Part shown: in pieces, positions 1,326-61,601 of the stretch
Position numbering within the stretch: the first letter of the stretch is position 1
Layout of the letters: every line of letters begins with the position of its first letter
Source of the DNA: Bacteroidia bacterium
GTDB taxonomy: Bacteria; Bacteroidota; Bacteroidia; UBA4408
Reading direction: 5' to 3'
Length of the DNA stretch: 64,000 bases
NCBI GenBank assembly: GCA_043778625.1
Contig: JAYWFU010000104.1
Span: forward strand, 3,216 to 67,215
The notes under the pieces: generated by a model
Database searches by the model: none
Told to the model about the DNA's origin: nothing
The model's input: the letters and a program-made list of their open reading frames with translations, nothing else
Position numbers and translations under genes: made by a program

Positions 1326-1830
1326 TTATTTAATTTTCTGCAATGTTAATCTATTTTTTTCGCATTTTGAACGTTTAATAGGTATTTGTACCTGATTTTT
1401 ATTGTACATAAATCAATTTATTTTTTGGATAATTTGTACTGTAGCTTTCTTAATTTTTACGGTATAATTAATAATTATGTACTTCAATAATTTTTTATTT
1501 TTAGTAGTAGCTAGTTACTTAGTGTAAATTGCGCTTACGCAACGCGACAGTAGCTGTATTAATAATAAATTACTAGCAATATCTTTACCAATTATGAACC
1601 TGCTTTGCCAGTACAAGCGTCAGATAGCCGAGCAGTTTAGGCTAGTGCAAGCTTGTAGCTACAAGTATTCGAAACCTTAATTAAGCTGAATTCAATAGGT
1701 GTTTTGCCTTATCGGGGTTAACTCCACGCAGCACTACTATTTCTTTAATAATAAATTTGCCTCAAATTGTAGCAAACTTTCGCCATCAACTCCTATACAA
1801 CATTGAATAACTACTATAAAAAAATAGTAG

Positions 1831-1900
1831 TTATTCATTCACAGCACAACTGGCACTAGCCTCAACTACACAGTTACCTGACGCTTGCGCCAGCGGGGGG
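1831..1900. repeat. partial copy of MITE-like repeat (3' half with terminal inverted repeat GCTTGCGCCAGCGGGGGG) plus shared sub-repeat TTATTCATTCACAGCACAACTGGCACTAGC
   Basis: Direct sequence match to the 3' halves of repeats at 2668-2884, 35817-35986 and 36909-37079. The sub-repeat also occurs at 35178-35219. Confidence 0.6.
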
Positions 1901-1940
1901 TTACATTTTTTGAACCCTCACAAAATATAACCTACACAAA

Positions 1941-1980
1941 ACAAACAAAAAGCCCTGCAACGCAGGGCTTTATACTTTTT
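1941..1980 (-). terminator. rho-independent terminator (bidirectional hairpin AGCCCTGC-AACG-CAGGGCT)
   Basis: GC hairpin at 1951-1969 flanked by an A-run and a T-run. Downstream of minus-strand gene 2056-2595. Confidence 0.6.
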
Positions 1981-1989
1981 ATACCGTTT

Positions 1990-2022
1990 ATGAATACCAG
2001 CAACATGCTGGCACTAGCCTAA
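1990..2022. repeat. internal fragment of MITE-like repeat (TGAATACCAGCAACATGCTGGCACTAGCCT)
   Basis: Matches the central portion of the repeat copies at 2668-2884, 35817-35986 and 36909-37079. Confidence 0.5.
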
Positions 2023-2055
2023 AGAATTATTAGAACTATTTTAAGTTTTTTACTA

Positions 2056-2595
2056 CTAGTCCAAGTCTGTTCTTTTTGGATACCTAACTAATAAATTACT
2101 ATACTTTATGTCTTCTAAGAAAAATTTTGACGAGTATATTATATCTGTAAATTTATCTCCATCACTATCAGTTACAGAACCTTCTGTAAAATAAACTAAT
2201 TGTTTTTTTTTATAAGCAGACAACAATTCTTTATTATATTTTTCATTATAATACGGAACTATAATATACCTAGTTTTTGAATACACAACTAAATTATCAT
2301 AGACGGCTGAAAGAGTCTTAAAAAGTTCATCGTTAATGAGAGCATTGGTTACTTTAACATCAACAACTCTAACGGGAATAAGTATCCATTTGTGTTTTTC
2401 TAAATTAATTCCTGAATATAATGGGATATAATTTGCAGGCAAAGAGTCTAATACAAAAGGGTTTTCTCTTATATAACAATGAACAAAATGGTTACGTCCG
2501 TTTATACTCGAACACCACTTAAATTTATTTGAATGCACTGATTCCTGACAACTACTAAAAAATAAAGATATAACTACGATTGCTATTTTTCTCAT
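2056..2595 (-). CDS. hypothetical lipoprotein
   Basis: 179 aa. N-terminus MRKIAIVVISLFFSSC is a lipoprotein signal. Flanked by MITE-like repeat copies. Confidence 0.5.
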   Translation of the reverse strand: MRKIAIVVISLFFSSCQESVHSNKFKWCSSINGRNHFVHCYIRENPFVLDSLPANYIPLYSGINLEKHKWILIPVRVVDVKVTNALINDELFKTLSAVYDNLVVYSKTRYIIVPYYNEKYNKELLSAYKKKQLVYFTEGSVTDSDGDKFTDIIYSSKFFLEDIKYSNLLVRYPKRTDLD

Positions 2596-2667
2596 TTCCC
2601 TCCTGGCTTCCGTAATGTTGGTGTACCTACAAATCCATTTTTATTCTCTATTCCTTTATTAAAGCAT

Positions 2668-2884
2668 CCCCCGCTGGCGCGAGCTTGCAGCTCGTGTCCA
2701 CTACCACTGTACCAAACCTTATTTTCTTGTTTACTATCATTAATCATTACAATTAGTTTTTATTTTTTAATGAATACGAGCAACATGCTCGCACTAGCCT
2801 AAACTACACGGTTACCTAACGCTCGCACTAGCGGGGGCACTAGCTACAACTGCTCGGTTACCTAACGCTAGAGCTAGCGGGGGG
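2668..2884. repeat. MITE-like repeat copy A (5' TIR CCCCCGCTGGCGCGAGC, 3' TIR GCTAGAGCTAGCGGGGGG; internal duplication of the 3' end)
   Basis: About 217 bp. Near-identical to copies at 35817-35986 and 36909-37079. Internal inverted repeats CGAGCA..TGCTCG. Exactly fills the gap between gene ends 2595 and 2885. Confidence 0.75.
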
Positions 2885-3328
2885 CTAAGTCAAAAATTCT
2901 TTATCTAGAAACAACCAAATTAATGATACTATAAAAGAAAGAATACTGTGTTTTTTCAAAACTTTATCTCCATTAATATTTTTTATTAGGTTATTAAAAA
3001 TTCTGATATATATTAAAATAGGAATAAAAACAAAAAAACCAATAATTCTGAATGAAAAATAGAATGAAATAAATGAAACTAAATAAATTAAAATAAAAAA
3101 GAAGAGTTTGTATTTTTTTTCAAAAACAATCAATAGAGAATTACAACTATAAATAAAAAATATATGTATCAAATAATTAAAAATTAATTCTATTCCAACA
3201 TAACCCATAGTTATACCACTATCCCAGTTTAACCACTCTATTGTCTTAGGTAAAAAATAAAAAATGTTCAACAATACTATTAAAAAATCTAAAAAATGAA
3301 GATTAATGTAATTTTTTAAATTAATCAT
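2885..3328 (-). CDS. small polytopic membrane protein, putative Rhs-toxin immunity protein
   Basis: Highly hydrophobic 147 aa product if started at ATG 3326-3328 (MINLKNYINLHFLDFLIVLL...). ORF track extends it to 3412, overlapping the upstream Rhs gene. Sits immediately downstream of the Rhs toxin tip. Confidence 0.45.
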   Translation of the reverse strand: MINLKNYINLHFLDFLIVLLNIFYFLPKTIEWLNWDSGITMGYVGIELIFNYLIHIFFIYSCNSLLIVFEKKYKLFFFILIYLVSFISFYFSFRIIGFFVFIPILIYIRIFNNLIKNINGDKVLKKHSILSFIVSLIWLFLDKEFLT

Positions 3329-3332
3329 AGTC

Positions 3333-5456
3333 TTATTTGTTTTTTGGTTTGCCTTTATATATATGTAATTTTTGATCAACAGTTTTAATTGCATTAAATG
3401 CTGCTTTATCATCTACTGTTGCAGCATGTGCTGCTTTCCCTTCCTTTTTCCAATTAATATTTTTAGAATTAGCGTCTTCAACATCTTTTAATTCATACCC
3501 ATTTTGTTTAGCCATTGGCTGAACAAGTCCCATATTATCATTGGCGTAAGTAAACTGTATTCCTCTTTTTTTCAGTTCATCTGTCATTTCAATATCGTTA
3601 GGTTGATGAACGGAAAGAAAAACTAAATTTACGGAAACCTTAACCCCCTTACGTGCAGCAGCATCTATGATACCACCTGCAATACCAACGCCTTCTGCAT
3701 TCCCTTGACTATGCATTACCACCGTCATGATATTATTATTTGTACTGACTTTTATCTCTCCTGAATTAACCATTTCCATACCCGTTTGATAACCTTCTGA
3801 TATTCTAGATTTTGCGGTTGAGCCGTGGGCATGATCGCCTGAAACAAAATGACTCTTATCATCGTTAAAATATCTTTCAATTTCTTTTGTAAAACCTTTA
3901 TTTTTTGAATTCCAATAAGAGTCTCGCAATTTATCTTGAAAATCTTGTTCACGATCGCTTGAACTTCTGTACCCTCCCAACCTATAACCATTTACAAAAA
4001 TAATGTCTTTACCATCAGGATCTATTACATTAACTGGGTTATTTGCGGCATAAGAATACGGACTTATGTCAGGGTATTTACTTGCTTTAGCATCACGTTT
4101 TGGTGTTCTTCCTAATCTTAAATCTAACCATCTATCACCCATATCTATTGTATTACCAACTCCACTTACGTCGTTAATTTTTTCTTGCCCTCCAAAACCG
4201 ATTCTTTCTGCCTCGTTAGGGTTTAGCGGTTGTTGTAGTGTGTTTTTACCGCTTTTGTACAGTGTACGTTCGGTCAGGGGTGCTCCGAATCCGCTATAAT
4301 CTGTAGCACTTAATATATCGGCTTTGTAGCCTGTTATTGCATTATTTGTAATAATTGGTATTTTGCGGTCGGAGACGGTGGTAAGCACATTATTCAAATG
4401 ATTACTTAACTCAAAATGCTTGTTGCCTAGCGTGGTGTAATAATTAAGTGTTGGGGTGGGGCTTATTAATTTTACGGTAGTGTAATCAGCCCCTAGGCGT
4501 GCGCTACCGTATAGGTTGCGCTCGGTAAGGTTAAATGTACCTGCAAGCATATCGTAGTGGTACACGGCCATGGTATTGCCCTGCGCATCGCGGGTATAGT
4601 AGTCGCTACTTAGTAGCTGTGGCACTGCATTAGTTGTGGCACTGGTGTACACGTGCTTAGCTATGCGGTTTCCGCTGGCATCGTAGTCAAACTTCAGGTC
4701 GTTTTTAGTGCTATTCATTGCACGACTAATGTACTTAATTTTTCCGTACACTGTCCATTCAATTTTATCTATTTTTTCTTGGGTATCTTTGGTAAGGTTA
4801 CCAATAGGGTCGTAGCTGTAGTTGTTACTACCATTAACATTGCTTGGGTTAAAATTGCCTTGGTCCTCTATGTCGTCAAGTGGAGTACTAGCCAGCACAA
4901 AATCATTTACATGGTATAATCTATTTTGGGTTTTGCCATTAGTAGTGGTGGCGTTGTTGTAGTTATAAGTTAAATTATCAAATGTAGCTCCGCTACCATC
5001 GTTGCGTACCTGTGTAAGTATGTTACCATTGGCATCGTAGGTAAATGTATTAAAATATTTGGTTGAACCTGCAGTTGTTGGTTGCCAAGCATTAGCTGCT
5101 ATATCCAAATTATCATAGGCCTGCGCTTGCATTAGTCTATTTAGCTGGTCGTATTGGTAGGTAAATGCGTTGGGTAGTACGGCACCTGTGGTAGGGTTGG
5201 TAATGGTGGTAACCATAGCACTAATATTACCATTGAACAAGCTTTGTGCGGCGGCTATTGCACTACCTGTTTTGTTGGCATTAAAGGTGGTAGGCGCTAC
5301 GCTTTTATAATCGCCGTTGTAGTAGTTTAGGCTATAGCCCATGGCATCTTTGGGTATTAGTTTATTGGTTCCTACCGTTCTACCGTCTTTTCCTAGGTCG
5401 TTATTGGGGTTTAGGCTTTCGGAGTTTATGCTAATTACATTTATAAAATAGTCCAA
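3333..5456 (-). CDS. Rhs/YD-repeat protein fragment with C-terminal polymorphic toxin domain (alpha/beta-hydrolase/lipase-like); likely orphan Rhs tip module
   Basis: YD repeats (YDANGNILTQ, YDASGNRIAKHVY, DYYTRDAQGNTMAVYHYD). Rhs core-end motif AANNPVNVIDPDG, followed by a unique ~250 aa tip containing a VVMHSQGN nucleophile-elbow-like motif. Only 707 aa. The first codon is TTG at 5454-5456 (no ATG), with the first in-frame ATG ~38 codons in. Confidence 0.75.
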   Translation of the reverse strand: MDYFINVISINSESLNPNNDLGKDGRTVGTNKLIPKDAMGYSLNYYNGDYKSVAPTTFNANKTGSAIAAAQSLFNGNISAMVTTITNPTTGAVLPNAFTYQYDQLNRLMQAQAYDNLDIAANAWQPTTAGSTKYFNTFTYDANGNILTQVRNDGSGATFDNLTYNYNNATTTNGKTQNRLYHVNDFVLASTPLDDIEDQGNFNPSNVNGSNNYSYDPIGNLTKDTQEKIDKIEWTVYGKIKYISRAMNSTKNDLKFDYDASGNRIAKHVYTSATTNAVPQLLSSDYYTRDAQGNTMAVYHYDMLAGTFNLTERNLYGSARLGADYTTVKLISPTPTLNYYTTLGNKHFELSNHLNNVLTTVSDRKIPIITNNAITGYKADILSATDYSGFGAPLTERTLYKSGKNTLQQPLNPNEAERIGFGGQEKINDVSGVGNTIDMGDRWLDLRLGRTPKRDAKASKYPDISPYSYAANNPVNVIDPDGKDIIFVNGYRLGGYRSSSDREQDFQDKLRDSYWNSKNKGFTKEIERYFNDDKSHFVSGDHAHGSTAKSRISEGYQTGMEMVNSGEIKVSTNNNIMTVVMHSQGNAEGVGIAGGIIDAAARKGVKVSVNLVFLSVHQPNDIEMTDELKKRGIQFTYANDNMGLVQPMAKQNGYELKDVEDANSKNINWKKEGKAAHAATVDDKAAFNAIKTVDQKLHIYKGKPKNK

Positions 5457-5475
5457 TAGTTAAATAGCGTTAAGA

Positions 5476-5560
5476 GCACCCCTCCAACGGCGAAGCCCTC
5501 ACGAAACAAAATAATAAAATAAAACTTGAGTAACAAAGGAGGGGAATTCGTGGCGTGAAT
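5476..5560. repeat. GC-rich hairpin element GCACCCCTCC...AAAGGAGGGGAA with an embedded CCTCACGAAACAA / TTCGTG half-site pair
   Basis: The same GCACCCCTCC and AAAGGAGGGGAA arms recur at 53889-53915. The CACGAAAC/TTCGTG palindrome halves recur at 54254-54280 and 61504-61568. Lies 20-80 nt 5' of the Rhs start. Confidence 0.5.
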
Positions 5561-5692
5561 ATCACATTGGACTATGTAGTATTTGTATTTGCTATTATGG
5601 CTTTTTAAAAGTATTAACTAGTTCAAAATAGTATAAAAACTCGCTCCAATAGTGTTTCTAACACTTGTGTTTTGTTAATAGCGGTTACACTC

Positions 5693-5736
5693 AACAAAAA
5701 AGCGATACTAAATTAATAGTATCGCTTTTATTTTGT
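5693..5736 (-). terminator. rho-independent terminator after rplQ
   Basis: Hairpin AAGCGATACT-AAATTAAT-AGTATCGCTT followed on the minus strand by a U-run. 30 nt downstream of the rplQ stop. Confidence 0.65.
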
Positions 5737-5765
5737 GACGTATATAAATATGTAATTTAAGTAAA

Positions 5766-6551
5766 TTACTCTTTACCTCCGTCTAGTTTTTCTTGTAAAT
5801 CTTTCAATTCAGCCCATTTGCCTTCAGCAGCTAATAAGGCTTGCTGTGCCCAAGTTGCTGGATCGTGCATTTTGTAACGATCGCCTCCTGTTAATAATAC
5901 TTCCTTTGATTTTTCTACTGAAGTTTCAGCTAATTGTTTCCAAGTTGAAATACCTGCAGCTACGTACAGTTCTTCAATTTTAGGGCCAATTCCTTCTACT
6001 ATTTTCAAATCATCTAATTTAACTTTTTTACCAAAAGCTTCGCTTGCGGCTTTAGCATTAAAATCGCCTTCAGCAACTGGTGCTGTACTAGCCATATTTG
6101 CATCAGCAACTTTAGCATCAGCAGGTTTAGGGCTACGACGCGTTGTTTTAGCTTTAGCGGGTTCAGCAGCTAATTTTCCGTTTGAGTAAATTTCGTTGAA
6201 ATCAACTAGTTCAATCATGCACATATCAGCATTATCTCCCATACGATTACCCGTTTTAATTATACGAGTATAACCTCCTGGACGAGTTGCAATTTTAGGT
6301 GCAATATCTCTAAACATAGTTGAAACAATGTCTTTATTTTTAACATAAGCAAAAACAGTACGACGATTATGCGTAGTATCAGTTTTTGATTTTGTTAATA
6401 AAGGTTCAACGTATTTTCTTAATTCTTTAGCCTTAGCTACAGTAGTAAATATTCTTTTGTGTATAACCAGTGAAGAAGCTAAATTAGCCAACAACGCTTT
6501 GCGATGTGCCGATGTTCTTCCTAAATGATTTACTTTTGATCCGTGTCTCAT
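5766..6551 (-). CDS. rplQ: 50S ribosomal protein L17 with ~110 aa C-terminal extension (Ala/Lys-rich linker plus helix-hairpin-helix-like domain)
   Basis: N-terminal 150 aa are canonical L17 ([21 protein letters not shown]...). The extension contains [28 protein letters not shown] (HhH GIGxK signature). Last gene of the alpha operon. Confidence 0.85.
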
Positions 6552-7602: not shown

Positions 7603-8208
7603 TTAGCGTGAGTACAACTCTACAATAAGTTGTTCTTTAATGTTTTCAGGTATTGAAGCCCTTTCAGGAACTTGAACAAATTTACCTTTCATGCCACTAT
7701 TATCCCACTCTAACCACGACCATTTTGATAATTTTTGGTTGCGTACCGATTCAAAAATCTCTAACGATTTTGAACGCTCACGCACCTCAATAACATCACC
7801 CGTTTGCACTTGATACGATGAAATATTTACAACATTACCATTAACCAAAATATGCTTGTGGCTAACTACTTGCTTTGCAGCATCACGAGTAGGCGTAATT
7901 CCTAAACGATACACTACGTTGTCTAAGCGAGATTCAATTAACTGTAATAAAACCTCACCAGTAACACCATGTGCACGAGTAGCTTTATCAAAAGTTATTT
8001 TAAATTGTTTTTCTAATATACCATAAGTATATTTTGCTTTTTGTTTTTCTTGCAACTGAATTGCGTATTCAGATTGCTTCATACGTTTTTTAGCTAAACC
8101 GTGTATCCCTGGAGGATAGTTTTTCTTTTCAACGTATTTATCAGGACCAAAAATTGGCTCACGAAACTTACGTGCAATTTTTGACTTTGGACCAATATAT
8201 CTTGCCAT
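7603..8208 (-). CDS. rpsD: 30S ribosomal protein S4
   Basis: 201 aa; [15 protein letters not shown]... is canonical S4. Confidence 0.95.
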
Positions 8209-35177: not shown

Positions 35178-35219
35178 TAGTTATTCATTCACAGCACAAC
35201 TAGGACTAGCAGGGGGAAT
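35178..35219. repeat. sub-repeat AGTTATTCATTCACAGCACAACTAGGACTAGCAGGGGG (MITE-family fragment)
   Basis: Matches 1824-1860 nearly exactly. Ends in a degenerate TIR. Confidence 0.5.
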
Positions 35220-35727
35220 TAAAAATTTCATTCGAATTTAAAGTGTGTTTATACAAAAGATTGTCGTAATCAGCCATATTCCATTCTTTAAATTTGTAAA
35301 ATGCTTTTAAAGCATTTTCGTATCTTATAGGAGAAATTATGGTTTGATAACTTAGCCGTGCAAATTCGTTAGCAGTAGCCTCTCGTAATATTTTCCCTTT
35401 ATAATCTGTTATACTCATATCATTGGGAGATATGCCTAATTTATGGTAAGGTAAAACTATTTGACTTATATTTTCAATAAGATTTCCTATGACAGACCAA
35501 CTATTATGATATAATTTTGCATCTAGTGAATAACCTAAAAATAAAATGGGAGATGAAGAGATGTTAGCTAAATCAACAACATGTTTTAAATCCTGTCTAT
35601 AATCAAAAACAACCATAATAAAACAATCTTTTGTAATGGGAAAGTTCACTATCTGACCAAACCCTACTTGATTATTCGATAAAGGAATAGTAAATATATC
35701 TCCTACGTTTAATTTAAATTTTGCCAT
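35206..35727 (-). CDS. hypothetical protein (cassette gene between MITE-like repeats; possible immunity protein)
   Basis: 173 aa; no signal peptide. Bounded by repeat fragments. Confidence 0.45.
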   Translation of the reverse strand: MAKFKLNVGDIFTIPLSNNQVGFGQIVNFPITKDCFIMVVFDYRQDLKHVVDLANISSSPILFLGYSLDAKLYHNSWSVIGNLIENISQIVLPYHKLGISPNDMSITDYKGKILREATANEFARLSYQTIISPIRYENALKAFYKFKEWNMADYDNLLYKHTLNSNEIFNSPC

Positions 35728-35816: not shown

Positions 35817-35986
35817 CCCCTGCTGGCGCGAGCATGTTGCTCGTGTCCGCTACCATTGTACCAAACTTTATTTTCTTATTTACTATCATTAATTATTACA
35901 ATTAGTTTTTATTTTTTAATGAATACCAGCAACATGCTCGCACTAGCTTATACTACACGCTTACCTAACGCTAGAGCTAGCGGGGG
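35817..35986. repeat. MITE-like repeat copy B
   Basis: 170 bp, CCCCTGCTGGCGCGAGC...GCTAGAGCTAGCGGGGG. About 90 percent identical to copies A and C. Confidence 0.75.
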
Positions 35987-35994
35987 TAGCATGG

Positions 35995-36888
35995 CTAATA
36001 TTTTTCAAGATACTTTTTCCAATTATTTGGATAATCCTCTTTTATTTTTTTAAGTACAAATTCTGGTACCGGAGCATCTCGATAATCAACACCTTTATTT
36101 TTTAAAAAATCTACAACCGCCATCTTTTCTAAATACTTTTTAGAATGTAAAGGTTGTAAATCCTCCCTTAAAAGTCCAACTATATATATCTTTTCTCCTC
36201 CTTCATAAAAGTTAGCTCTGTCAAAAATCATTAACGAATAATCAGCTCCTTTTTGAAGAAGATACAAAACAACGTCGTAATGCTTAAAAAGCAAAGCTTC
36301 GGCAAGAGGAAAAGCATTAAACTCATTTTTATAATTTATATTAGCTCCAACTTCCACAAGCATTTTTACTTTTTTTATAGGAGATTGTGTTTCGGAGACA
36401 TCACTAATCGCCAATAATAAAGGGGTTTGCCTTGTTGAATTACCAACTCTTCTTTCCCCCGTTTCTTCATCGTTTGGATTACCTTTATAAGCCAGCATTA
36501 ATTGTAAAAAAGATGCGTTTTCATTTTTAAAATCTGTAATACCTGCAGAATAAATAATAGCAGATCTACCGTCATAATTACTATGTTTGTTTGGATCTGC
36601 TCCTAATTCTAACAACACTTTACATTCATTGTACTGTTTGTTTTGTACCGCTAACATTAATAATGTTTGCCCAAATATTACCTCTTGACAATTTACATCT
36701 ACCTTATCTTCAATAATTATTTTTTTAATTTTACCCGTGTCTTCATTCTCTACTGCTTTAGCTAAATCCCATACTTGAGTTCCTTGAAACAACCTATAAT
36801 CATTACCTCTTAAGGTAGATTTGTCTATGTCTTCACATGCGGAAAATAATAATGTTAACAATAGCAAAAGAATTGTTTTTTTATCCAT
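35995..36888 (-). CDS. ankyrin-repeat lipoprotein (possible polymorphic-toxin immunity protein)
   Basis: Lipoprotein signal MDKKTILLLLLTLLFSAC from ATG at 36886-36888; the ORF track start at 36903 is a TTG. Several ANK repeats follow (LLMLAVQNKQYNECKVLLELGADPN...). Confidence 0.65.
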   Translation of the reverse strand: MDKKTILLLLLTLLFSACEDIDKSTLRGNDYRLFQGTQVWDLAKAVENEDTGKIKKIIIEDKVDVNCQEVIFGQTLLMLAVQNKQYNECKVLLELGADPNKHSNYDGRSAIIYSAGITDFKNENASFLQLMLAYKGNPNDEETGERRVGNSTRQTPLLLAISDVSETQSPIKKVKMLVEVGANINYKNEFNAFPLAEALLFKHYDVVLYLLQKGADYSLMIFDRANFYEGGEKIYIVGLLREDLQPLHSKKYLEKMAVVDFLKNKGVDYRDAPVPEFVLKKIKEDYPNNWKKYLEKY

Positions 36889-36908
36889 ACGTATTTTTAC
36901 CAATTTGA

Positions 36909-37079
36909 CCCCCCGCTGGCGCGAGCATTTTGCTCGTGTCCGCTACCATTGTACCTAACCTTAATTTTCTTGTTTACTATCATTAATCATTACAATTAGT
37001 TTTTATTTTTTAATGAATACGAGCAACATGCTGGCACTAGCCTCAACTGCACGCCTACCTAACGCTAGAGCTAGCGGGG
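36909..37079. repeat. MITE-like repeat copy C
   Basis: 171 bp. Both TIRs intact. Abuts the gene start at 36888/36903 and the gene stop at 37083. Confidence 0.75.
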
Positions 37080-37082
37080 AAA

Positions 37083-37547
37083 TTATTCTGGAAAAAAAAC
37101 ATATTGCGGTTCCAACACGTATTTATCATTTAATTTTTTAATCAGATTTTCTACAATCATAATTTCACTAATATAATTGTTTTTTTCAAAATTAAAACTA
37201 TAAAAAACATCATCAAAATTAAAACCCCAACTTATAATTGATTTACCGTGACAAATATTTACTTTTCGCCATCCTGCCTCATCTGCTATTCCACTCACAC
37301 CTGTAAATATCAAAAAAAAACCAGAACATTCTGTACTTTTTTTTAATTCATCAAAATATAAAAAAGTCTCTGGGAAATGTTCATTAATTAAATTTTTTTC
37401 ATCAATAACACATTCTAGATAAGCAATGTTTGAAAAATCAATTGCGTCTATTTGAATCAAATTATCAATTAATTTTAATTTTAATTTTAATTTATTCATT
37501 GTACTATTTTTGATAAAAAGGAAAAATTGAGCTTTTTGAATTATCAA
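37083..37547 (-). CDS. hypothetical protein (cassette gene; possible immunity protein)
   Basis: 154 aa. Alternative start MNKLKL at 37499. Flanked by repeat copies C and D. Confidence 0.45.
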   Translation of the reverse strand: MIIQKAQFFLFIKNSTMNKLKLKLKLIDNLIQIDAIDFSNIAYLECVIDEKNLINEHFPETFLYFDELKKSTECSGFFLIFTGVSGIADEAGWRKVNICHGKSIISWGFNFDDVFYSFNFEKNNYISEIMIVENLIKKLNDKYVLEPQYVFFPE

Positions 37548-37669
37548 TATGATTTATAAATACTTTTACCTGGCTTGTAGGAGTATTTGGGGTACTAATA
37601 TTAAAACCTGCGTTATAAGAATATTTTGTAGCATATTTAATTCCATTCAAATCATAAAAATGTTGTTGG

Positions 37670-37734
37670 CCCCCCGCTGGCGCGAGCATTTTGCTCGTGT
37701 CCGCTACCATTGTACCTAACCTTAATTTTCTTGT
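37670..37734. repeat. MITE-like repeat copy D (5' 65 bp only, truncated)
   Basis: CCCCCCGCTGGCGCGAGCATTTTGCTCGTGTCCGCTACCATTGTACCTAACCTTAATTTTCTTGTT is identical to the 5' end of copy C, then diverges. Confidence 0.65.
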
Positions 37735-37899
37735 TATAATTATTCATTAACCTTACTCTTTTCATAAATAACTTCAACTGCTAGCTTAGCCTAAATTATA
37801 CCGCTACCTAAATAATATCTCTTGGTGTTTTAATACTTATGATAAGTATAAATATTAGCATAAAAACATTTAGTAAATATAGTACTAACAACATAAAAA

Positions 37900-37942: not shown

Positions 37943-37943
37943 G

Positions 37944-38016
37944 TGGTCGCGCAGGGATTCGAACCCCGAACCTTCTCATCCGTAGTGAGATGCTATATCC
38001 ATTAAGCCACGCAACC
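37944..38016 (-). tRNA. tRNA-Arg (anticodon ACG)
   Basis: Hand-folded cloverleaf: acceptor GGTTGCG/CGCGACC, anticodon stem TCTCA/TGAGA with loop CTACGGA, T-arm CGGGG-TTCGAAT-CCCTG. CCA not encoded. Confidence 0.8.
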
Positions 38017-48304: not shown

Positions 48305-48826
48305 TTAATACGCACGAATGGTACTTGCGTTTACTTCCATTAAGTCGCCTTTTTGCTTGAGCACAGCTATACCTAGGTCTAGGGCTTCTTGCTCCAATTC
48401 GGCATAAAAACTAAAACTAGCTAAGCCACAGTATATGGTATAGTCAGCATAATCAGGATTAAGTGCTCTAAAATTTGGTACTTTACTTTCCACCAGCTTT
48501 ATAAGGTCGTTTTTGTGCGCTTTGTATTTACATTCGATAAGTGCTATGCTATTACCGTTGTACATTACCACATCAAATTCGTCCTGTAGGCGTTTGGTAC
48601 GTTGTTTTACGTTACGGTCCACATAATCGTAACTAATGCCCGCAAACAATTTAGACGTTTCAAGAGCGTTATAAAAATAATATTCGGCAAAGTCACCGTT
48701 GTTATGCCCTACATTTGATAATTCCCTGCTTGTGCGCTCTACTTGTGCTTCAGTTTGGGCAAAACGCAAAGCGTTTTGGGCTATAAGTTCTGCTAATGAT
48801 TGCTCTATTCTATCTATACGTTCCAT
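48305..48826 (-). CDS. PD-(D/E)XK-like nuclease-fold protein with N-terminal coiled coil (paralog 2)
   Basis: 173 aa; motif DEFDVVMYNGNSIALIECKYK (D..E.K). C-terminal ~60 aa nearly identical to 48959-49528. Confidence 0.5.
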   Translation of the reverse strand: MERIDRIEQSLAELIAQNALRFAQTEAQVERTSRELSNVGHNNGDFAEYYFYNALETSKLFAGISYDYVDRNVKQRTKRLQDEFDVVMYNGNSIALIECKYKAHKNDLIKLVESKVPNFRALNPDYADYTIYCGLASFSFYAELEQEALDLGIAVLKQKGDLMEVNASTIRAY

Positions 48827-48871
48827 GTGTAGTATATTTTTAATTTTAACACAAATATAATTATATTTTAT

Positions 48872-48907
48872 ACAACAAAGGCTACCTATCAGGTAGCCTT
48901 TGTTTGT
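48872..48907 (-). terminator. long conserved hairpin (ACAACAAAGGCTACCT-ATC-AGGTAGCCTTTGTTTGT) between the paralogs: terminator/attenuator-like
   Basis: 16 bp stem. A near-identical element at 49626-49661 precedes paralog 1. No strong U-run. Confidence 0.45.
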
Positions 48908-48958
48908 TATGTTTTAGCACAATGCACTAAGAAATTTATTCATTAAGATGGAGCTTAA

Positions 48959-49528
48959 CTAATACGCACGTATTGTACTTGCGTTTACTTCCATTAGGTC
49001 GCCTTTTTGCTTAAGTACTGCTACACCTAGGTCTAATGCTTGCTGTTCTAATTCAGAGTAAAAACTAAAGCTCGCTAAGCCACAGTATATAGTGTAGTTA
49101 GCGTAGTCGGTGTTGAGCTCTCTAAAATTACTTACCTTTTTTTCTACTAATTTCTTCAAGTCCTTTTCATGCGCTTTGTACTTGCATTCTATTAAGGCTA
49201 TGCTGTTGCCGTTGTACATTACTAAGTCAAATTCGTCTTCTAATCGGTGGCGTTTAATGTGTATGTTTTTGCTAATTGTGTCGTACTTAATTCCTGCAAA
49301 TACCATAGTTTCGCTAAGCGAATTATAAAAATAATCCTCCGCATAATCGCCATTATTGTGCCCTATGTTAGATAGTAAAGCTTCCGTTTTAGCAAAACGC
49401 TCGTCGCCTTTGGCAAACAATGCTTTGGTTTCGGCAAAGCCTCTTTGTGTTTGGGCTTGGGCTTTTTGATTTTCGGCTTGCATTAGGAGTATGCTTGCCA
49501 CTAGGTCTTTAAGTTCTTGGTCGGTCAT
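48959..49528 (-). CDS. PD-(D/E)XK-like nuclease-fold protein with N-terminal coiled coil (paralog 1)
   Basis: 189 aa; DEFDLVMYNGNSIALIECKYK; same C-terminus as paralog 2. Confidence 0.5.
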   Translation of the reverse strand: MTDQELKDLVASILLMQAENQKAQAQTQRGFAETKALFAKGDERFAKTEALLSNIGHNNGDYAEDYFYNSLSETMVFAGIKYDTISKNIHIKRHRLEDEFDLVMYNGNSIALIECKYKAHEKDLKKLVEKKVSNFRELNTDYANYTIYCGLASFSFYSELEQQALDLGVAVLKQKGDLMEVNASTIRAY

Positions 49529-49625
49529 GGGGATAGATTGGGTTTTAGATATTAGACACTAAATTTTAGACGTTAGATATATAGATGGTAGGTTTTTGTA
49601 AGTACAACAAATGTAGTTATTTTAT

Positions 49626-49661
49626 ACAACAAAGGCTACCTGTCAGGTAGCCTTTGTTTGT
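49626..49661 (-). terminator. long conserved hairpin downstream of the tail-fiber-like gene
   Basis: ACAACAAAGGCTACC-TGTC-AGGTAGCCTTTGTTTG; duplicated at 48872-48907. Confidence 0.45.
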
Positions 49662-49686
49662 TATGTTTTAGCACAAGTCGTTATTT

Positions 49687-52600
49687 TTACTTACGTTTTA
49701 AGGCTTCTATTTCTTTGCGTAGTTCTTCAATAGCTTTTTTATCAGTATCGCGCTCAGCTTTTAGCTCTTTTATTGCTTCAATAAGTATTGGAGTAAATTT
49801 GCTATAATCTACACCTTTGTAGCCATCGGCACTAGTGTTAATTAGTTGTGGGTACACTGCCTCTACCTCTTGGGCTATTACGCCTACTTGTGTGCCTTGG
49901 CCAAAGCCTTTGTCTTTGTACTCGGCTTTCATATCGTAGGTTACGCCACGTAGCTTTAGCACATTGGTTAGTGCACCTTGCAAGGTAGTAACGTTTTGCT
50001 TATAACGAGCATCACTTGGGGTAATAGTACCACTGGCTAGTATGTTGCCTATTACGTGGAGTTTTTGGGTAGGAGCATTAGTACCCATACCTATGTTACC
50101 ATTATCATAGCGAATAGCCAAACTATTAAGTGCAAGAGTTGATTCCATAACTAATACTTGATTTACTACATTACCTAGCGGGTTGTATTGAGATATTCTA
50201 AAATCTAAATCATCAGCTGCATTATCTTTAAAATCAATATAAGCTTTAGTAAAAGGTGTAGATAACTGATTACGGAATATCTCCAATTGTCCATCAGTAG
50301 ATATAATGGCTGAGCTTAGCCCATTACTATTTTCTGTAAGTACAGAACCATCTACCAAGTGGAGCTTTTGTGTGGGTGAAGCTGTACCAATACCTACGTT
50401 GCCAGTAGGTTGTATTACTATTGCGTGCGATGAGTTAGTTCTATTACCAATAGCGAAACTACCGTTAGCACTAAATCCTCCATAGGTACCTACAGATTCC
50501 AATACCCACTGTTGTCCACCTCCCCCTGTATTTTCTAATACAAAATCAACACTACCTGCTGGTGCCGCATCCTTAATATATAACTTAGCGCTTGGCGCAG
50601 TAGTACCAATACCTATGTTACCCGATGGGGCTTGCAATGTCAAAGCTACATTTGGAAACGGTAAGGTAGAGTTCCAAAAATGTAAATCTTTAGTGCCAGC
50701 GTTACTGTACATTTGCCAAGTATTGTTGTTTAAGCCTGCTGTTACGTTTTTAGCTAATGTTAAGCCAAAGTTATTTTCGGCAGTTTGTGTTATGTTTATT
50801 CGGTCGTCGGAGTTTACTAGCACGCTTAGTTTATTAGGGGGGGTTAATGTACCTATACCTACCGTGTGAGCAGCTGTTAGCACCATGGTTGTATTGTTAA
50901 TTAAGTCGTTAGTATTATTTTGTTGGCTTACTGCTCCACCTGTTATGGGGAAATTAGCTATGCCCAACGACCCACTCGAATGCTGATATATGGCACTACC
51001 TGCGTTAGATGACCCACCATCATGATCGCTTACAAACTTATTTAAAGTGGAGTTGTAATAGGTATTAAACCCTAAAAAGCCTCTGTAATTATAAAGGGCA
51101 TAAGCCCCTGTGCCTGCCGCTAAATCTCCTAACGAGTGTAAAAATATCTTGCTAGGCTCAAACGTTCCGCCCACCATAAGGGTAGCATCATTTGTAGCGT
51201 CGGTAGATACGTGTAGTTTAGCACTAGGCGCAGTTGTACCAATACCTACATTAACTTTATTAGCGGCAGTACCGCCTAATATTAAGCTATTACTTGCACC
51301 TACTTTGGCATTGTAGCCTATGGCGGTAGCGTTGGTAAATATGCTATCAGTGGCATCGGCAAGCGCACCCAAAAAGGTGTTGTTGCCCGTAGTGCTTACA
51401 AAAGCACCTGAGTTGTAACCTATGCTTGTATTGTAGTTACCAGTGGTATTGTTATACAAGGCTGATAAACCCAATGCAGTGTTGTAGCTGCCTACAGTAT
51501 TACGGCGTAGGTTAGTGTGGCCTAGCCCCACGTTTTCGTTACCTGTAGTGTTGTTAGCTAAGGCTTGGTCGCCCAATGCTACGTTTAGCGTGCCTGTAGT
51601 GTTTTGCTTTAATGCAGCTGCCCCTACAGCAGTGTTTGCGCTGGCTAAGCTATTAGTTAATGCTAAAGCTCCGATGGCTACGTTGCCTGCACCAGTGGTA
51701 TTAAGCTGCAAAGTACCCGTACCCACTGCTGTGTTAGTAGTGCCTGTGGTATTTTGTGCAAGCGAAGCGTAACCGTAAGCGGTGTTTTGTGTACCTGTGG
51801 TGGCTGGGTTTAATGCACTTACGCCAAAAGCAGTGTTTTGTAATGCGTTGTTAATTAATCCGCTCTGTAAGCCATTACGCTTAAACACTACATCTTGGTT
51901 GTCAGTTGTGCCCATAAAGTTGATAGCCGAGTTAGTACCACTATTGCCTGTAAGCCCCCAAAACAAACCGTTAGTTGGGGTGCTGGCGGTAGAAGCTGGT
52001 ATTACATCGCCATTGGCATCGGTACTTAGTACGCTTGCATTAGGTAAGTTGGTTAGGCGCAAACCACTGTTGCCTGTTGTGCCGTGGGTAATTTCTAACT
52101 TATTGTTGGGAGCATTTTGCCCAATGCCTACATTACCATTATTTAATATTGTTAGGCGAGATAAGTTGGGTGTAATATCATATATTGCTAAACCATTTAC
52201 ATCAGTTTGTATTCTAAATAAATCGCCAGCGGTAACACTCATATCAATAACTGTGTTTGTTGTATTGAATAGGTTTATACCATCGCCATTTATATCTAAT
52301 TTCCGTATAGGGGTAGTTGTACCTATACCTACGTTGCCATTGCTTTCAATGCGCATTTTTTCAGTAGCCAAAATAACTCCATTGTTGGTAGTTAAAAATT
52401 TTAAATTAGAACCTGCCTGTGTTGCGCTATGGTTTTCGGAAGTTTCACTTGTGATACCTGTTAACGAATTAGAAGTATTAAACGCTGTACCCAAATAACT
52501 TGCAAATGAAAGATAGCCCAAGCCGTCGCCTAACTGAAGAGGCGTTGGTGTGCTTAATGTGCCTCGTGCACCTTGCATGCCAAGCACACCGCCATAGGCA

Positions 52601-53979
52601 GGGGTTGTACTCATGTAATTAGTGTGGTATATACCTCTGTTATAGCCTTGGTCAACTACTTCTAATGTACCTGTTGGTGTAAACGGAGTACCTATGGCAA
52701 CAGCACCAGTAGTAAAAATACGCATGTTTTCAACTCCGTTGGTTTTAAGTACAAAATCTTGCGCATCGGTTGTACCAATAAAATTAGTGCCTGCTACTGT
52801 GCCTGCATTGCCCTTGAGTAGCCATGCTTGGGCTTTAATACTATCAGTTATGGTAGTGTTGGTTACGTTGGGTGGTGTTGTCCAAGTTGGGGCTACACCT
52901 GCGCCTGCGCTAGTAAGCACTTGCCCAGTAGTGCCAGCAAGGGTGTTAGGCATTAGTGCACCTGTAAAGCGTAGGTTACCCGTTACATCCAACGGTTGGC
53001 TGGGCAATGCTTGGTTAATACCTACGTAACCAGTACCACTTAGTATGGTTATTTTTTCGGCACTGTTGGCCACTATGTGCAAGTCGCGCGCATTAAGTGT
53101 ACCTAGTTTGTTAGTGGCACTGGCATTATTACCCTTGAGCAACCACGCTTGTGCGGCTATACTATCGGTAATAGTTTGTAGTATGTTTTGCCCGCCAATG
53201 TACAGGCTATCCATGTTGCTAACTCCTCCGTTAAATGTATTAGCAGTAATGCTATTGGTGGTTATTGTGTTGCTTTTTAGGGTATCAATTTGCCCGTTTT
53301 TAATGTAGGCATAGTTGGTGGTGCTACTATCTACTTTTAATATATTAATGTTAGCGTTGTTAATTATTGCTATATTGGTTATGCTGGTGTCTACGGTTAA
53401 TATATTAATTACGGCGTTATTAATGTTGGTATAATTAAATAGGGCAGTATCACCCTTGAGTATATTAATTATGGTGGTGCTGTTGCTATTCAAATATTTT
53501 TTAATGGCTTTGTTAAGCAAGGCGGTATCAATACTCTTGTCGCATAGATTTTTCCACGCCGTGCCGTTATAAAAATGGTAGCACGCGCTGTCGGTGTTAT
53601 ATATTAATAAGGCAGCTTCGGTGGTAGTGGTGGCTATGGCTAACATTGCGGGGGTGTTCATGCGTGGTGCCATAAAACCTTTGTCAGTTGCTTTTAGTTC
53701 CAATATAGCTTTGCTATTGGGGGTGGTGGTACCTATGCCTACGTTGTTTTGGGCTTGGGTGGTTACAAATGAACACGCAACAATTAGTAGGGTTAGATAA
53801 TAGTATTTAGATGTTAGACAGTACAGGCTAGATTTTATGCTGTTAGCTACTAGGCTTATGTGGCGGGTGATACCACCCCGCCCTGCGGGCACCCCTCCTA
53901 AAAAAGGAGGGGAACAGCATGGTGTGAGTGTGTTAGTTTGAGTGACTTGATTTGCGATGGTGAGTAATAGTGTTTTCAT
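49687..53979 (-). CDS. giant tail-fiber-like surface protein with VGIGTT..P..KL repeats, Hep_Hag/YadA-head-like NTA.G..AL..NTTG repeats and C-terminal peptidase S74 (endosialidase intramolecular chaperone) domain
   Basis: 1430 aa. Repeats such as NVGIGTTTPNSKAILEL, NIGIGTTAPSAKLYI. C-terminus SDARYKQNVTTLQGALTNVLKLRGVTYDM...GVIAQEVEAVYPQLI...ILIEAIKELKAE is a typical S74 chaperone domain. The annotated N-terminal 60 aa translate a GC-rich hairpin element, so the true start is uncertain. Confidence 0.7.
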   Translation of the reverse strand: MKTLLLTIANQVTQTNTLTPCCSPPFLGGVPAGRGGITRHISLVANSIKSSLYCLTSKYYYLTLLIVACSFVTTQAQNNVGIGTTTPNSKAILELKATDKGFMAPRMNTPAMLAIATTTTEAALLIYNTDSACYHFYNGTAWKNLCDKSIDTALLNKAIKKYLNSNSTTIINILKGDTALFNYTNINNAVINILTVDTSITNIAIINNANINILKVDSSTTNYAYIKNGQIDTLKSNTITTNSITANTFNGGVSNMDSLYIGGQNILQTITDSIAAQAWLLKGNNASATNKLGTLNARDLHIVANSAEKITILSGTGYVGINQALPSQPLDVTGNLRFTGALMPNTLAGTTGQVLTSAGAGVAPTWTTPPNVTNTTITDSIKAQAWLLKGNAGTVAGTNFIGTTDAQDFVLKTNGVENMRIFTTGAVAIGTPFTPTGTLEVVDQGYNRGIYHTNYMSTTPAYGGVLGMQGARGTLSTPTPLQLGDGLGYLSFASYLGTAFNTSNSLTGITSETSENHSATQAGSNLKFLTTNNGVILATEKMRIESNGNVGIGTTTPIRKLDINGDGINLFNTTNTVIDMSVTAGDLFRIQTDVNGLAIYDITPNLSRLTILNNGNVGIGQNAPNNKLEITHGTTGNSGLRLTNLPNASVLSTDANGDVIPASTASTPTNGLFWGLTGNSGTNSAINFMGTTDNQDVVFKRNGLQSGLINNALQNTAFGVSALNPATTGTQNTAYGYASLAQNTTGTTNTAVGTGTLQLNTTGAGNVAIGALALTNSLASANTAVGAAALKQNTTGTLNVALGDQALANNTTGNENVGLGHTNLRRNTVGSYNTALGLSALYNNTTGNYNTSIGYNSGAFVSTTGNNTFLGALADATDSIFTNATAIGYNAKVGASNSLILGGTAANKVNVGIGTTAPSAKLHVSTDATNDATLMVGGTFEPSKIFLHSLGDLAAGTGAYALYNYRGFLGFNTYYNSTLNKFVSDHDGGSSNAGSAIYQHSSGSLGIANFPITGGAVSQQNNTNDLINNTTMVLTAAHTVGIGTLTPPNKLSVLVNSDDRINITQTAENNFGLTLAKNVTAGLNNNTWQMYSNAGTKDLHFWNSTLPFPNVALTLQAPSGNIGIGTTAPSAKLYIKDAAPAGSVDFVLENTGGGGQQWVLESVGTYGGFSANGSFAIGNRTNSSHAIVIQPTGNVGIGTASPTQKLHLVDGSVLTENSNGLSSAIISTDGQLEIFRNQLSTPFTKAYIDFKDNAADDLDFRISQYNPLGNVVNQVLVMESTLALNSLAIRYDNGNIGMGTNAPTQKLHVIGNILASGTITPSDARYKQNVTTLQGALTNVLKLRGVTYDMKAEYKDKGFGQGTQVGVIAQEVEAVYPQLINTSADGYKGVDYSKFTPILIEAIKELKAERDTDKKAIEELRKEIEALKRK
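53861..53915. repeat. GC-rich hairpin element (GGCGGGTG-ATAC-CACCCCGCC; GCACCCCTCC-TAAAAA-AGGAGGGGAA) inside the annotated 5' end of the tail-fiber-like gene
   Basis: Shares the GCACCCCTCC and AAAGGAGGGGAA arms with the element at 5476-5560. GC content sharply above local background. Confidence 0.55.
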
Positions 53980-54253: not shown

Positions 54254-54280
54254 CTTGTTTCGTGAGGACACGAACCAAGG
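54254..54280. promoter_or_regulatory. palindromic motif CTTGTTTCGTG-AGGA-CACGAACCAAGG (candidate operator or REP-like element)
   Basis: 11 bp imperfect inverted repeat ~275 nt upstream of the tail-fiber-like gene. Related copies at 61504-61568 and 5496-5559. Confidence 0.45.
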
Positions 54281-54347
54281 CGTATATAATTCGTGCTCTC
54301 ACTAACTAATGTGTAATAGTACTATACGAATCAATATTTAATAGTAA

Positions 54348-61363: not shown

Positions 61364-61503
61364 AATCTTTAATTATATTATTTTACTCACAAAAGTAATG
61401 TAATTATTGATATTGCAAAGTGTATAAAATTTGGGGTTTATTGCGCTAAAATTAAGGTATTAAAACATCGTTTTTAGTAGTTAAAAATTACTTTGTCCGC
61501 TGG

Positions 61504-61568
61504 CCTTGTTTCGTGTCCCCACGAAACAATTGAATACTGTTTTGTTTCATGAAGACACGAACCAAGGC
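61504..61568. promoter_or_regulatory. tandem palindromic motifs CCTTGTTTCGTG-TCCC-CACGAAACAA and GTTTCATG-AAGA-CACGAACCAAGGC upstream of the E2 gene
   Basis: Same GTTTCGTG/CACGAAAC family as 54254-54280. 140-200 nt upstream of the minus-strand gene start at 61363. Confidence 0.45.
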
Positions 61569-61601
61569 AGTAAAAATTAATGTTTGGTGTGCTAATAGTT
61601 G

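Follow-up and report, generated by a model that had tools for sequence, protein, structure and literature searches.

Probable REPINs of a Bacteroidota REP/RAYT clade trail toxin/immunity cassettes on a contig of a Bacteroidia bacterium

According to the usual description, repetitive extragenic palindromes (REPs) co-evolve with a REP-associated tyrosine transposase (RAYT) of their own and are confined to narrow lineages. The REPINs (inverted REP doublets) of Pseudomonas and the bacterial interspersed mosaic elements (BIMEs) of E. coli, the descriptions of which are said to go back to Bertels and Rainey in 2011 and to Nunvar in 2010, are reportedly extragenic pairs of inverted REPs that form a long hairpin, lack target-site duplications and are presumed to be mobilised in trans by a single-copy HUH transposase whose gene is itself bracketed by REPs. 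Transposases of TnpA_REP subclass 2.6 come mostly from Bacteroidetes and have flanking 'atypical secondary structures' without the tetranucleotide GT[AG]G (PMC6006769); the REPs tabulated for this subclass include GCTAGCGCGAGCGTCCCGCTCGTG from Aequorivita and GCTGGCGCGAGCATATGCTCGTGCC from Spirosoma (PMC6006769, Table S1). Here, we analysed a stretch of 64,000 nucleotides (nt) of contig JAYWFU010000104.1 from a Bacteroidia bacterium (the window), in which an earlier note, made from the sequence alone, had described a family of 175-bp repeats resembling miniature inverted-repeat transposable elements (MITEs) beside an Rhs gene. We conclude, with a probability of roughly 0.8, that these repeats are REPINs of the Bacteroidota RAYT clade that corresponds to TnpA_REP subclass 2.6 or Bertels group 5. 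To this clade, which has been catalogued but little studied, the window would add a lineage-specific REPIN of 170 nt.

The repeat family beside Rhs is real, lies at the places given in the earlier note and exceeds chance expectation by far: a search with the hairpin motif allowing up to 7 mismatches gave 13 matches in the window (palindromic double counts included) versus 0-2 per shuffle in 20 shuffles. In total, there are three full copies, one half-degenerate copy and four fragments, with four perfect and 4-5 degenerate REP units. The full copies A (2668-2884), B (35817-35986) and C (36910-37079), all on the plus strand, are about 90% identical to each other over 170 nt and consist of five parts in fixed order: a CCCCC foot, a perfect 27-nt unit of the form GCTGGCGCGAGC-N5-GCTCGTGTCC, an AT-rich spacer of 72 nt, an inverted unit which reads GCTAGTGCGAGCATGTTGCTCGTATTC on the other strand, and a 39-nt extension in which the last 12 nt of the inverted unit recur and which terminates in GGGGG. 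In copy A, the 170-nt unit spans 2668-2837, with a perfect REP(+) at 2673-2699 following the CCCCC foot, the spacer at 2700-2771, the inverted REP(-) with 4 mismatches at 2772-2798 and the extension up to 2837. Copy A measures 217 nt because the extension is followed by a 46-nt tandem repeat of itself at the right end (2836-2884); the copy was correctly located, and the unit has 170 nt instead of the proposed 175. The corresponding REP(+) and REP(-) units lie at 35822-35848 (perfect) and 35921-35947 in copy B, and at 36915-36941 (perfect) and 37015-37041 in copy C. Copy D (37671-37811, plus strand) has a perfect REP(+) at 37676-37702 in an intact 5' half and a degenerate 3' half. As for the fragments, E (1768-1899, plus) is a degenerate REPIN with 68% identity to copy A, F (1973-2023, plus) has kept the inverted REP(-) alone (1992-2018, 6 mismatches), G (1607-1660, minus) corresponds to the element's right-end module, inverted and with 80% identity over 54 nt, previously placed at about 1636-1680, and H (35178-35215, plus) is a degenerate right-end module with 94% identity to positions 1828-1860 of fragment E.

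The outer termini of the element are inverted repeats, as had been noticed, and they match at 14-16 of 17 positions and coincide with the feet of the two inverted REP hairpins: CCCCCGCTGGCGCGAGC agrees with the reverse complement of GCTAGAGCTAGCGGGGG at 14/17 positions and with the internal GCTCGCACTAGCGGGGG at 15/17. The 3' foot of fragment E (GCTTGCGCCAGCGGGGGG, 1883-1900), which had been taken for an exact reverse complement of the 5' foot, is complementary to it at 16/17 positions (GCGCAAGC versus GCGCGAGC). Both internal CGAGC..GCTCG stem-loops are present, and folding of the whole element, which had been proposed as a check, predicted one long hairpin in which the two REPs are paired (z = -4.4 as DNA and -4.8 as RNA). 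The loop of the hairpin unit itself, GCTGG-CGCGAGC-N-NNN-N'-GCTCG-TGTCC, has 3 nt, and two G.T pairs render the two strands asymmetric. GCTGG or GCTAG forms its foot where GTAG would be classical, and the tetranucleotide GT[AG]G is absent from this foot.

A 51-amino acid (aa) open reading frame (ORF) that extends into copy A (2592-2747) was considered as a small conserved peptide gene within the repeat and discarded, since its frame is broken in copy B; the repeat is therefore non-coding. The sequences flanking the different copies are unrelated to each other, which rules out that the copies arose as a segmental duplication. The proposed search for target-site duplications revealed none in the sequences around copies A (flanks AAAGCAT and CTAAGTC), B (CAATATG and TAGCATG) and C (AATTTGA and AAATTAT). 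Independent metagenome assemblies contain contigs of the same strain that break off within copies A, C, D and E, which a multi-copy repeat would lead one to expect, and exact-protein look-ups for strain variants of the gene arrays returned contigs of this same strain only.

In order to place the hairpin, we scanned for the exact 27-mer using one genome per species. It was found in more than 108 stretches, 108 of which were fetched as loci (L-numbers below), nearly all from Bacteroidota of the classes Cytophagia, Flavobacteriia, Sphingobacteriia and Bacteroidia. Among the matches listed, copy number is high in Rufibacter and Sabulibacter; Chryseobacterium, Flavobacterium, Capnocytophaga, Sphingobacterium, Maribacter, Owenweeksia, Marinifilum, Bacteroidales metagenome-assembled genomes (MAGs) and others carry a few copies each. 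The hairpin is nearly invariant across four classes of the phylum. The first and last bases of the N5 segment form a Watson-Crick pair in 132 of 137 instances (GC 56, CG 44, TA 26, AT 6), and this covariation of the closing pair through all four pair types indicates that the hairpin is selected as a structure with a 3-nt loop. The commonest arrangement is the doublet: a convergent REP(-) lies within 500 nt of 55 of the 103 REP(+) units, and convergent doublets occur throughout the genomes of Hymenobacteraceae. More broadly, REPs are found at the 3' ends of genes, and those oriented like the upstream gene outnumber the anti-oriented ones about two to one. The earlier note had held that few copies without conserved terminal repeats would speak against a mobile element; this is not what we found, because the hairpin is conserved across the phylum. 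The sole match outside Bacteroidota among those listed (L044, 3083-3109, a Gemmatimonadota MAG) sits in GC-rich DNA within an ORF of 886 aa; it probably arose by chance and is not a REP. In Chryseobacterium, the REP is preceded by a run of at least 12 C (L011, about 837-848; L098, about 7923-7935), a potential slippage or phase-variable tract of which the window has CCCCC or CCCCCC only.

The hairpin is linked to a RAYT gene. The 27-nt unit stands in inverted orientation on both sides of a 184-aa ORF in Chryseobacterium kimseyorum (L007), and the same order of REP(+), RAYT gene and REP(-) recurs in L099, L013 and L093 (Bacteroidales MAG); in Rufibacter sediminis (L031), REP doublets lie just upstream of the RAYT gene. 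The gene is thus bracketed in four loci of two classes and adjoined by doublets in a fifth locus of a third class. RAYT is the bracketed gene seen among the fetched loci, the whole set of 108 not having been screened systematically for others. The protein of L007 has a Pfam Y1_Tnp match, and it exceeds, like those of L093 and L031, the curated cut-off of the NCBIfam model NF047646, 'REP-associated tyrosine transposase'. In the L007 protein, the motifs SHIH, WQ, YIHQNP and SS, the length of 184 aa and the spacing from HuH to Y fit subclass 2.6. In addition, the hairpin of the window matches the tabulated GCTAGCGCGAGCGTCCCGCTCGTG and GCTGGCGCGAGCATATGCTCGTGCC, that is, it is the same hairpin. 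Since this hairpin brackets a Y1/HUH RAYT and matches the subclass 2.6 REPs, we assign the repeat to the REP/REPIN class and not to MITEs of the DDE type. As the REPs of this subclass are documented without GT[AG]G, the missing tetranucleotide does not exclude membership.

Some additional observations concern the RAYT loci. In L007, the last 22-27 codons of RAYT recur beside the intact gene as tandem 3'-end remnants, each bracketed by REPs (87-230 and 1196-1330), and L099 holds two near-complete RAYT copies, which suggests that the RAYT locus underwent local duplication and deletion mediated by REPs. A RAYT of Sabulibacter ruber (L070, 5248-5883) was ruled out as a partner of the hairpin: it has its own unrelated palindrome, CCTCACAGGT-N-ACCTGTGAGG, located beside the gene and inserted within it, and the pairing of RAYT and REP is thus specific. 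The insertion within the gene resembles what has been described as 'inserted in tnpAREP' for subclass 2.4. This type of RAYT coexists with many REP copies of the subclass 2.6 type in the same genome.

The likeness to the subclass 2.6 REPs of Aequorivita and Spirosoma (PMC6006769) comprises the foot GCTGG/GCTAG, the stem CGCGAGC/GCTCGTG, the 3-nt loop of TCY type, the absence of GTAG and the position flanking a Y1 protein of about 180 aa with the motif YIH[QN]NP. The window differs from these REPs in the 170-nt doublet with its lineage-specific AT-rich spacer and its right-end extension of 39-46 nt, and in that no RAYT is visible within 64 kb. With the Pseudomonas REPINs and the E. coli BIMEs, the repeat shares the extragenic inverted pair folding into a long hairpin, the lack of target-site duplications and the presumed mobilisation in trans by a REP-bracketed single-copy enzyme; unlike them, its hairpin has no GTAG guide and is conserved phylum-wide instead of being species-specific, and in the lineage of the window it is low in copy number and concentrated in toxin/immunity arrays.

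Three other explanations were weighed. The first of these takes the repeat for a cis-acting RNA element only, a stabiliser, terminator or insulator which is not mobile and was copied together with the neighbouring genes by segmental duplication. REPs stabilise mRNA in E. coli, and in our data the position of the repeats at gene 3' ends, the roughly twofold excess of co-oriented REPs elsewhere, the intrinsic terminator that follows the REP in Chryseobacterium and the RNA fold (z = -4.8) agree with such a role. We nevertheless consider it improbable as the whole explanation: the copies lack homologous flanks, the perfect REP of the window lies on the antisense strand, and both the association with RAYT and the doublet structure would be left unexplained. 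Moreover, a search of Rfam at the gathering threshold gave no family at the repeats, and a known RNA family was also discarded when region 1500-3000 was searched at an E-value threshold, as this returned weak terminator-type matches alone, at 1934-2011.

The second explanation treats the repeats as integron-like sites, i.e. as the 3' sites of cassettes, analogous to attC, at which a tyrosine recombinase captures immunity genes. The rAID-1 arrays of Bacteroidales are described as containing 'repetitive intergenic sequences' that recall integrons (Ross et al. 2019; bioRxiv 10.1101/471110). The window resembles attC and rAID-1 arrays in that a hairpin-forming repeat closes short, co-oriented cassettes of low GC content, starting 0-8 nt past each stop codon, and in the occurrence of orphan immunity genes. 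This organisation is present but insufficient alone to define an integron or a rAID-1 family. No recombinase or transposase gene adjoins either array in the window or in a contig reaching 3 kb past its left edge, and there is no pair of R''/R' core sites: when attC cores of the form RYYYAAC...GTTRRRY were sought by eye, a single GTTAGGT was seen on the minus strand within the right-end module, and the other end lacked an inverse partner. In contrast to attC and rAID-1 repeats, this REP proliferates outside arrays, being scattered by dozens beside housekeeping genes of Hymenobacteraceae, and it brackets a RAYT of the HUH type and not an integrase, which makes an integron-like origin very unlikely.

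The least probable reading is that of a classical MITE, which would have arisen by deletion from a DDE-transposase insertion sequence and would move by cut-and-paste via 17-bp terminal inverted repeats: like MITEs such as the Correia elements, the repeat is small, non-coding, dispersed, AT-rich inside, located at gene boundaries and equipped with inverted termini (14-16/17) and internal hairpins, but MITEs derive from DDE-transposase insertion sequences and generate target-site duplications, neither of which holds here, as copies A, B and C lack such duplications, their termini are REP hairpin feet with a covarying closing pair, and the bracketed gene is a Y1/HUH RAYT, no DDE transposase having been noticed in the fetched loci, which were not screened systematically.

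We return to REPINs of subclass 2.6 as the preferred reading, under which the repeat is dispersed, non-coding and probably non-autonomous. A single-copy RAYT that is, or formerly was, encoded elsewhere in the source genome would nick and rejoin the folded single-stranded REP, and in this way spread REP doublets in trans without target-site duplication. Once in place, the 170-nt copies of about 90% identity after each immunity gene could provide the homology for RecA-dependent deletion and shuffling, which would explain both the vestigial toxin 3' ends at the REPIN ends and the toxin-less array by the tRNA-Arg gene described below. On the sense strand, the hairpin may have a secondary role as mRNA 3' stabiliser or insulator. 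Several points weigh against this assignment. No RAYT homologue was detected by tblastn in the 64-kb window or in the 3 kb past its left edge and, as the rest of the source genome was not read, a cognate RAYT is unproven. The inverted REP deviates from the 27-nt unit at 4-5 positions, and the 39-nt extension at the right end, duplicated in copy A, is foreign to a canonical REPIN. The visible copies and fragments number eight, at two loci only. Two patterns specific for the 170-nt element of the window gave 0 matches in JGI metagenomes, and the 108 fetched loci, among which the source genome is not represented, share with it the 27-30-nt hairpin and nothing beyond; since the 170-nt element was not found elsewhere, recent transposition is not demonstrated. 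Finally, we know of no biochemical demonstration of RAYT-catalysed REPIN mobility for subclass 2.6.

All genes neighbouring the repeats at the two loci are on the minus strand, and the repeat-punctuated array of co-oriented, short, low-GC cassettes of toxin/immunity type that had been proposed beside Rhs was confirmed there and at a second locus 33 kb away, with two such genes trailed by a repeat at locus 1 and three at locus 2. Element starts follow the upstream stop codons by 0 nt (copy A), 8 nt (B) and 3 nt (C). At locus 1, the order in the direction of transcription is rplQ with its terminator, a truncated Rhs gene, a putative immunity ORF, REPIN A, 72 nt, a lipoprotein-like ORF, fragment F, a terminator and fragments E and G. 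The truncated Rhs/YD-repeat protein (3333-5456, minus), directly downstream of rplQ, has 707 aa and lacks the N-terminus; it has an RHS_repeat Pfam match, and its translation contains the core-end motif NPVNVIDPDGKD (DPDG), followed by a C-terminal toxin region. The putative cognate immunity gene (2885-3328, minus), a small AT-rich hydrophobic ORF directly after this toxin region, gave no match in Pfam. The right end of REPIN A touches its stop codon at 2885. In the earlier note, the repeats were said to fill the space up to the next gene exactly; this does not hold, as REPIN A leaves 72 nt before the ATG of the lipoprotein-like ORF at 2595. The interval contains about 24 codons (2592-2667, minus) between the left end of REPIN A and the lipoprotein gene, which represent the 3' part of the 51-aa ORF, the 5' part of which lies inside the repeat and the stop codon of which overlaps the lipoprotein ATG (ATGA). 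These codons could be the vestige of a toxin-gene 3' end, and the stretches between REPIN left ends and the next gene may in general be such vestiges. The lipoprotein-like ORF (2056-2595, minus; 179 aa, no Pfam match) is a cassette gene by position and possibly an orphan immunity gene. Fragment F begins beyond it, 33 nt after its stop, and is separated from fragment E by a hairpin with T-run (1946-1972, minus) that resembles an intrinsic terminator for the minus-strand genes and on which all weak Rfam matches of leader or small RNA type are centred. The orphan Rhs module begins in a non-coding stretch (5457-5765) that directly follows the terminator of rplQ, where the ribosomal protein/rpoA operon ends, which is an unusual site for such a module. 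The rplQ (L17) ORF itself (5766-6551) encodes 261 aa with a long Lys/Ala-rich C-terminal extension.

The second array starts just 3' of a tRNA-Arg (ACG) gene (37943-38016, minus). In the direction of transcription, it consists of copy D, about 130 nt 3' of the tRNA gene, a 68-aa ORF, a 138-aa gene, REPIN C, an ankyrin-repeat lipoprotein gene, REPIN B, an Imm26 gene and fragment H. The 68-aa ORF (37504-37710, minus), mapped back to the window from a gene call in L113, begins inside the REP of copy D and may be what is left of a truncated toxin C-terminus, fused to this REP. It precedes the 138-aa cassette gene (37083-37499, minus; no Pfam match), with copy C placed 3 nt past the stop codon of the latter. 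The ankyrin-repeat lipoprotein ORF (35995-36903 according to a mechanical ORF call, minus; likely ATG near 36890) would by its position be a cassette of orphan-immunity type, and copy B lies 8 nt past its stop and 89 nt ahead of the ATG of the orphan immunity gene of the Imm26 family (35206-35727, minus; PF15428, E = 3.5e-11), the stop codon of which is overlapped by fragment H. Pfam families among the neighbours of the arrays are Imm26, ankyrin repeats, DUF2779 and trypsin, or there is no match.

In order to assess whether REPs accompany such cassettes in other genomes, the ORFs within 900 nt of a REP were collected from the 48 loci outside Hymenobacteraceae and assigned to Pfam families. The most frequent families were Y1_Tnp (5), RHS_repeat (4) and DUF6443 (3); Tae4 had 2 members, as had many unrelated families. 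The same analysis of the Hymenobacteraceae loci (123 ORFs) gave housekeeping families only. Homology to the Rhs core was present at 11/48 REP loci outside Hymenobacteraceae versus 0/60 within. In most of the nine loci that we mapped (L047, L055, L011, L107, L077, L046, L003, L066 and L025), the REP is co-oriented with the genes and lies shortly after the immunity gene of an Rhs-CT/immunity or Tae4-like/immunity module, which it closes. In L047, an Rhs remnant is joined to the REP immediately behind ...DANDYYPFGMN; when Chryseobacterium species are compared, the variable toxin/immunity segment stops and homology resumes at a block of poly-C, REP and terminator; and in the window, REPIN ends abut apparent remnants of toxin genes. 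The repeat-punctuated arrays of the window are thus one instance of a wider pattern: in genomes of low copy number, the REP is found mainly by the RAYT gene and in polymorphic-toxin arrays, in which each toxin/immunity cassette ends with it. A literature search for a link between REPs and Rhs and for the motif string found nothing relevant in the main texts, and the position of REPs after the immunity gene of toxin/immunity cassettes, outside the high-copy Hymenobacteraceae, seems to be new.

How this association arises can be read in two ways. One open reading is that REPs simply survive and are imported in toxin/immunity islands, which turn over fast. The other, which we regard as rather doubtful, is that the REP acts as a functional 3' boundary that makes cassettes of the toxin/immunity modules through processing by RAYT or recombination between REPs. 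An HUH RAYT acting on folded single-stranded REPs, or REP-REP recombination, would then capture, swap and delete modules, in a hairpin-based analogy to integron attC sites and with a resemblance to the intergenic repeats of rAID-1 orphan-immunity arrays, and so build Rhs orphan arrays; removal of the toxins would leave toxin-less orphan-immunity arrays like the one beside tRNA-Arg. If the association were functional, it would offer a testable mechanism for the assembly and pruning of Rhs orphan modules and orphan-immunity islands, and an answer to the open question of which role 'domesticated' RAYTs have in the cell.

A second family of REP-like hairpins, GCTGG-CCTTGTTTCGTG-TCC-CCACGAAACAA, shares the GCTGG foot and the TCC loop with the first but differs in the stem. 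A convergent doublet (61497-61571) and a single unit (54255-54281) make 3 matches versus an expectation of 0 by chance. There is also a half copy (5497-5512), which lies some 40 nt 5' of the truncated Rhs ORF and may mark the point of the Rhs truncation. Elsewhere in the window, a tail-fibre-like protein of 1430 aa (49687-53979, minus) has internal repeats of about 40 nt and a C-terminal Peptidase_S74 domain (endosialidase chaperone). It is followed by two paralogous ORFs with Card1-like endonuclease domains (48959-49528 and 48305-48826), and there is no REP in the region 48305-53979. Palindromic hairpins of 59 nt trail the Card1-like ORFs (49618-49676 and 48864-48922) and are 98% identical to each other. 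Por_Secre_tail domains encoded at other sites in the window assign the organism to Bacteroidota.

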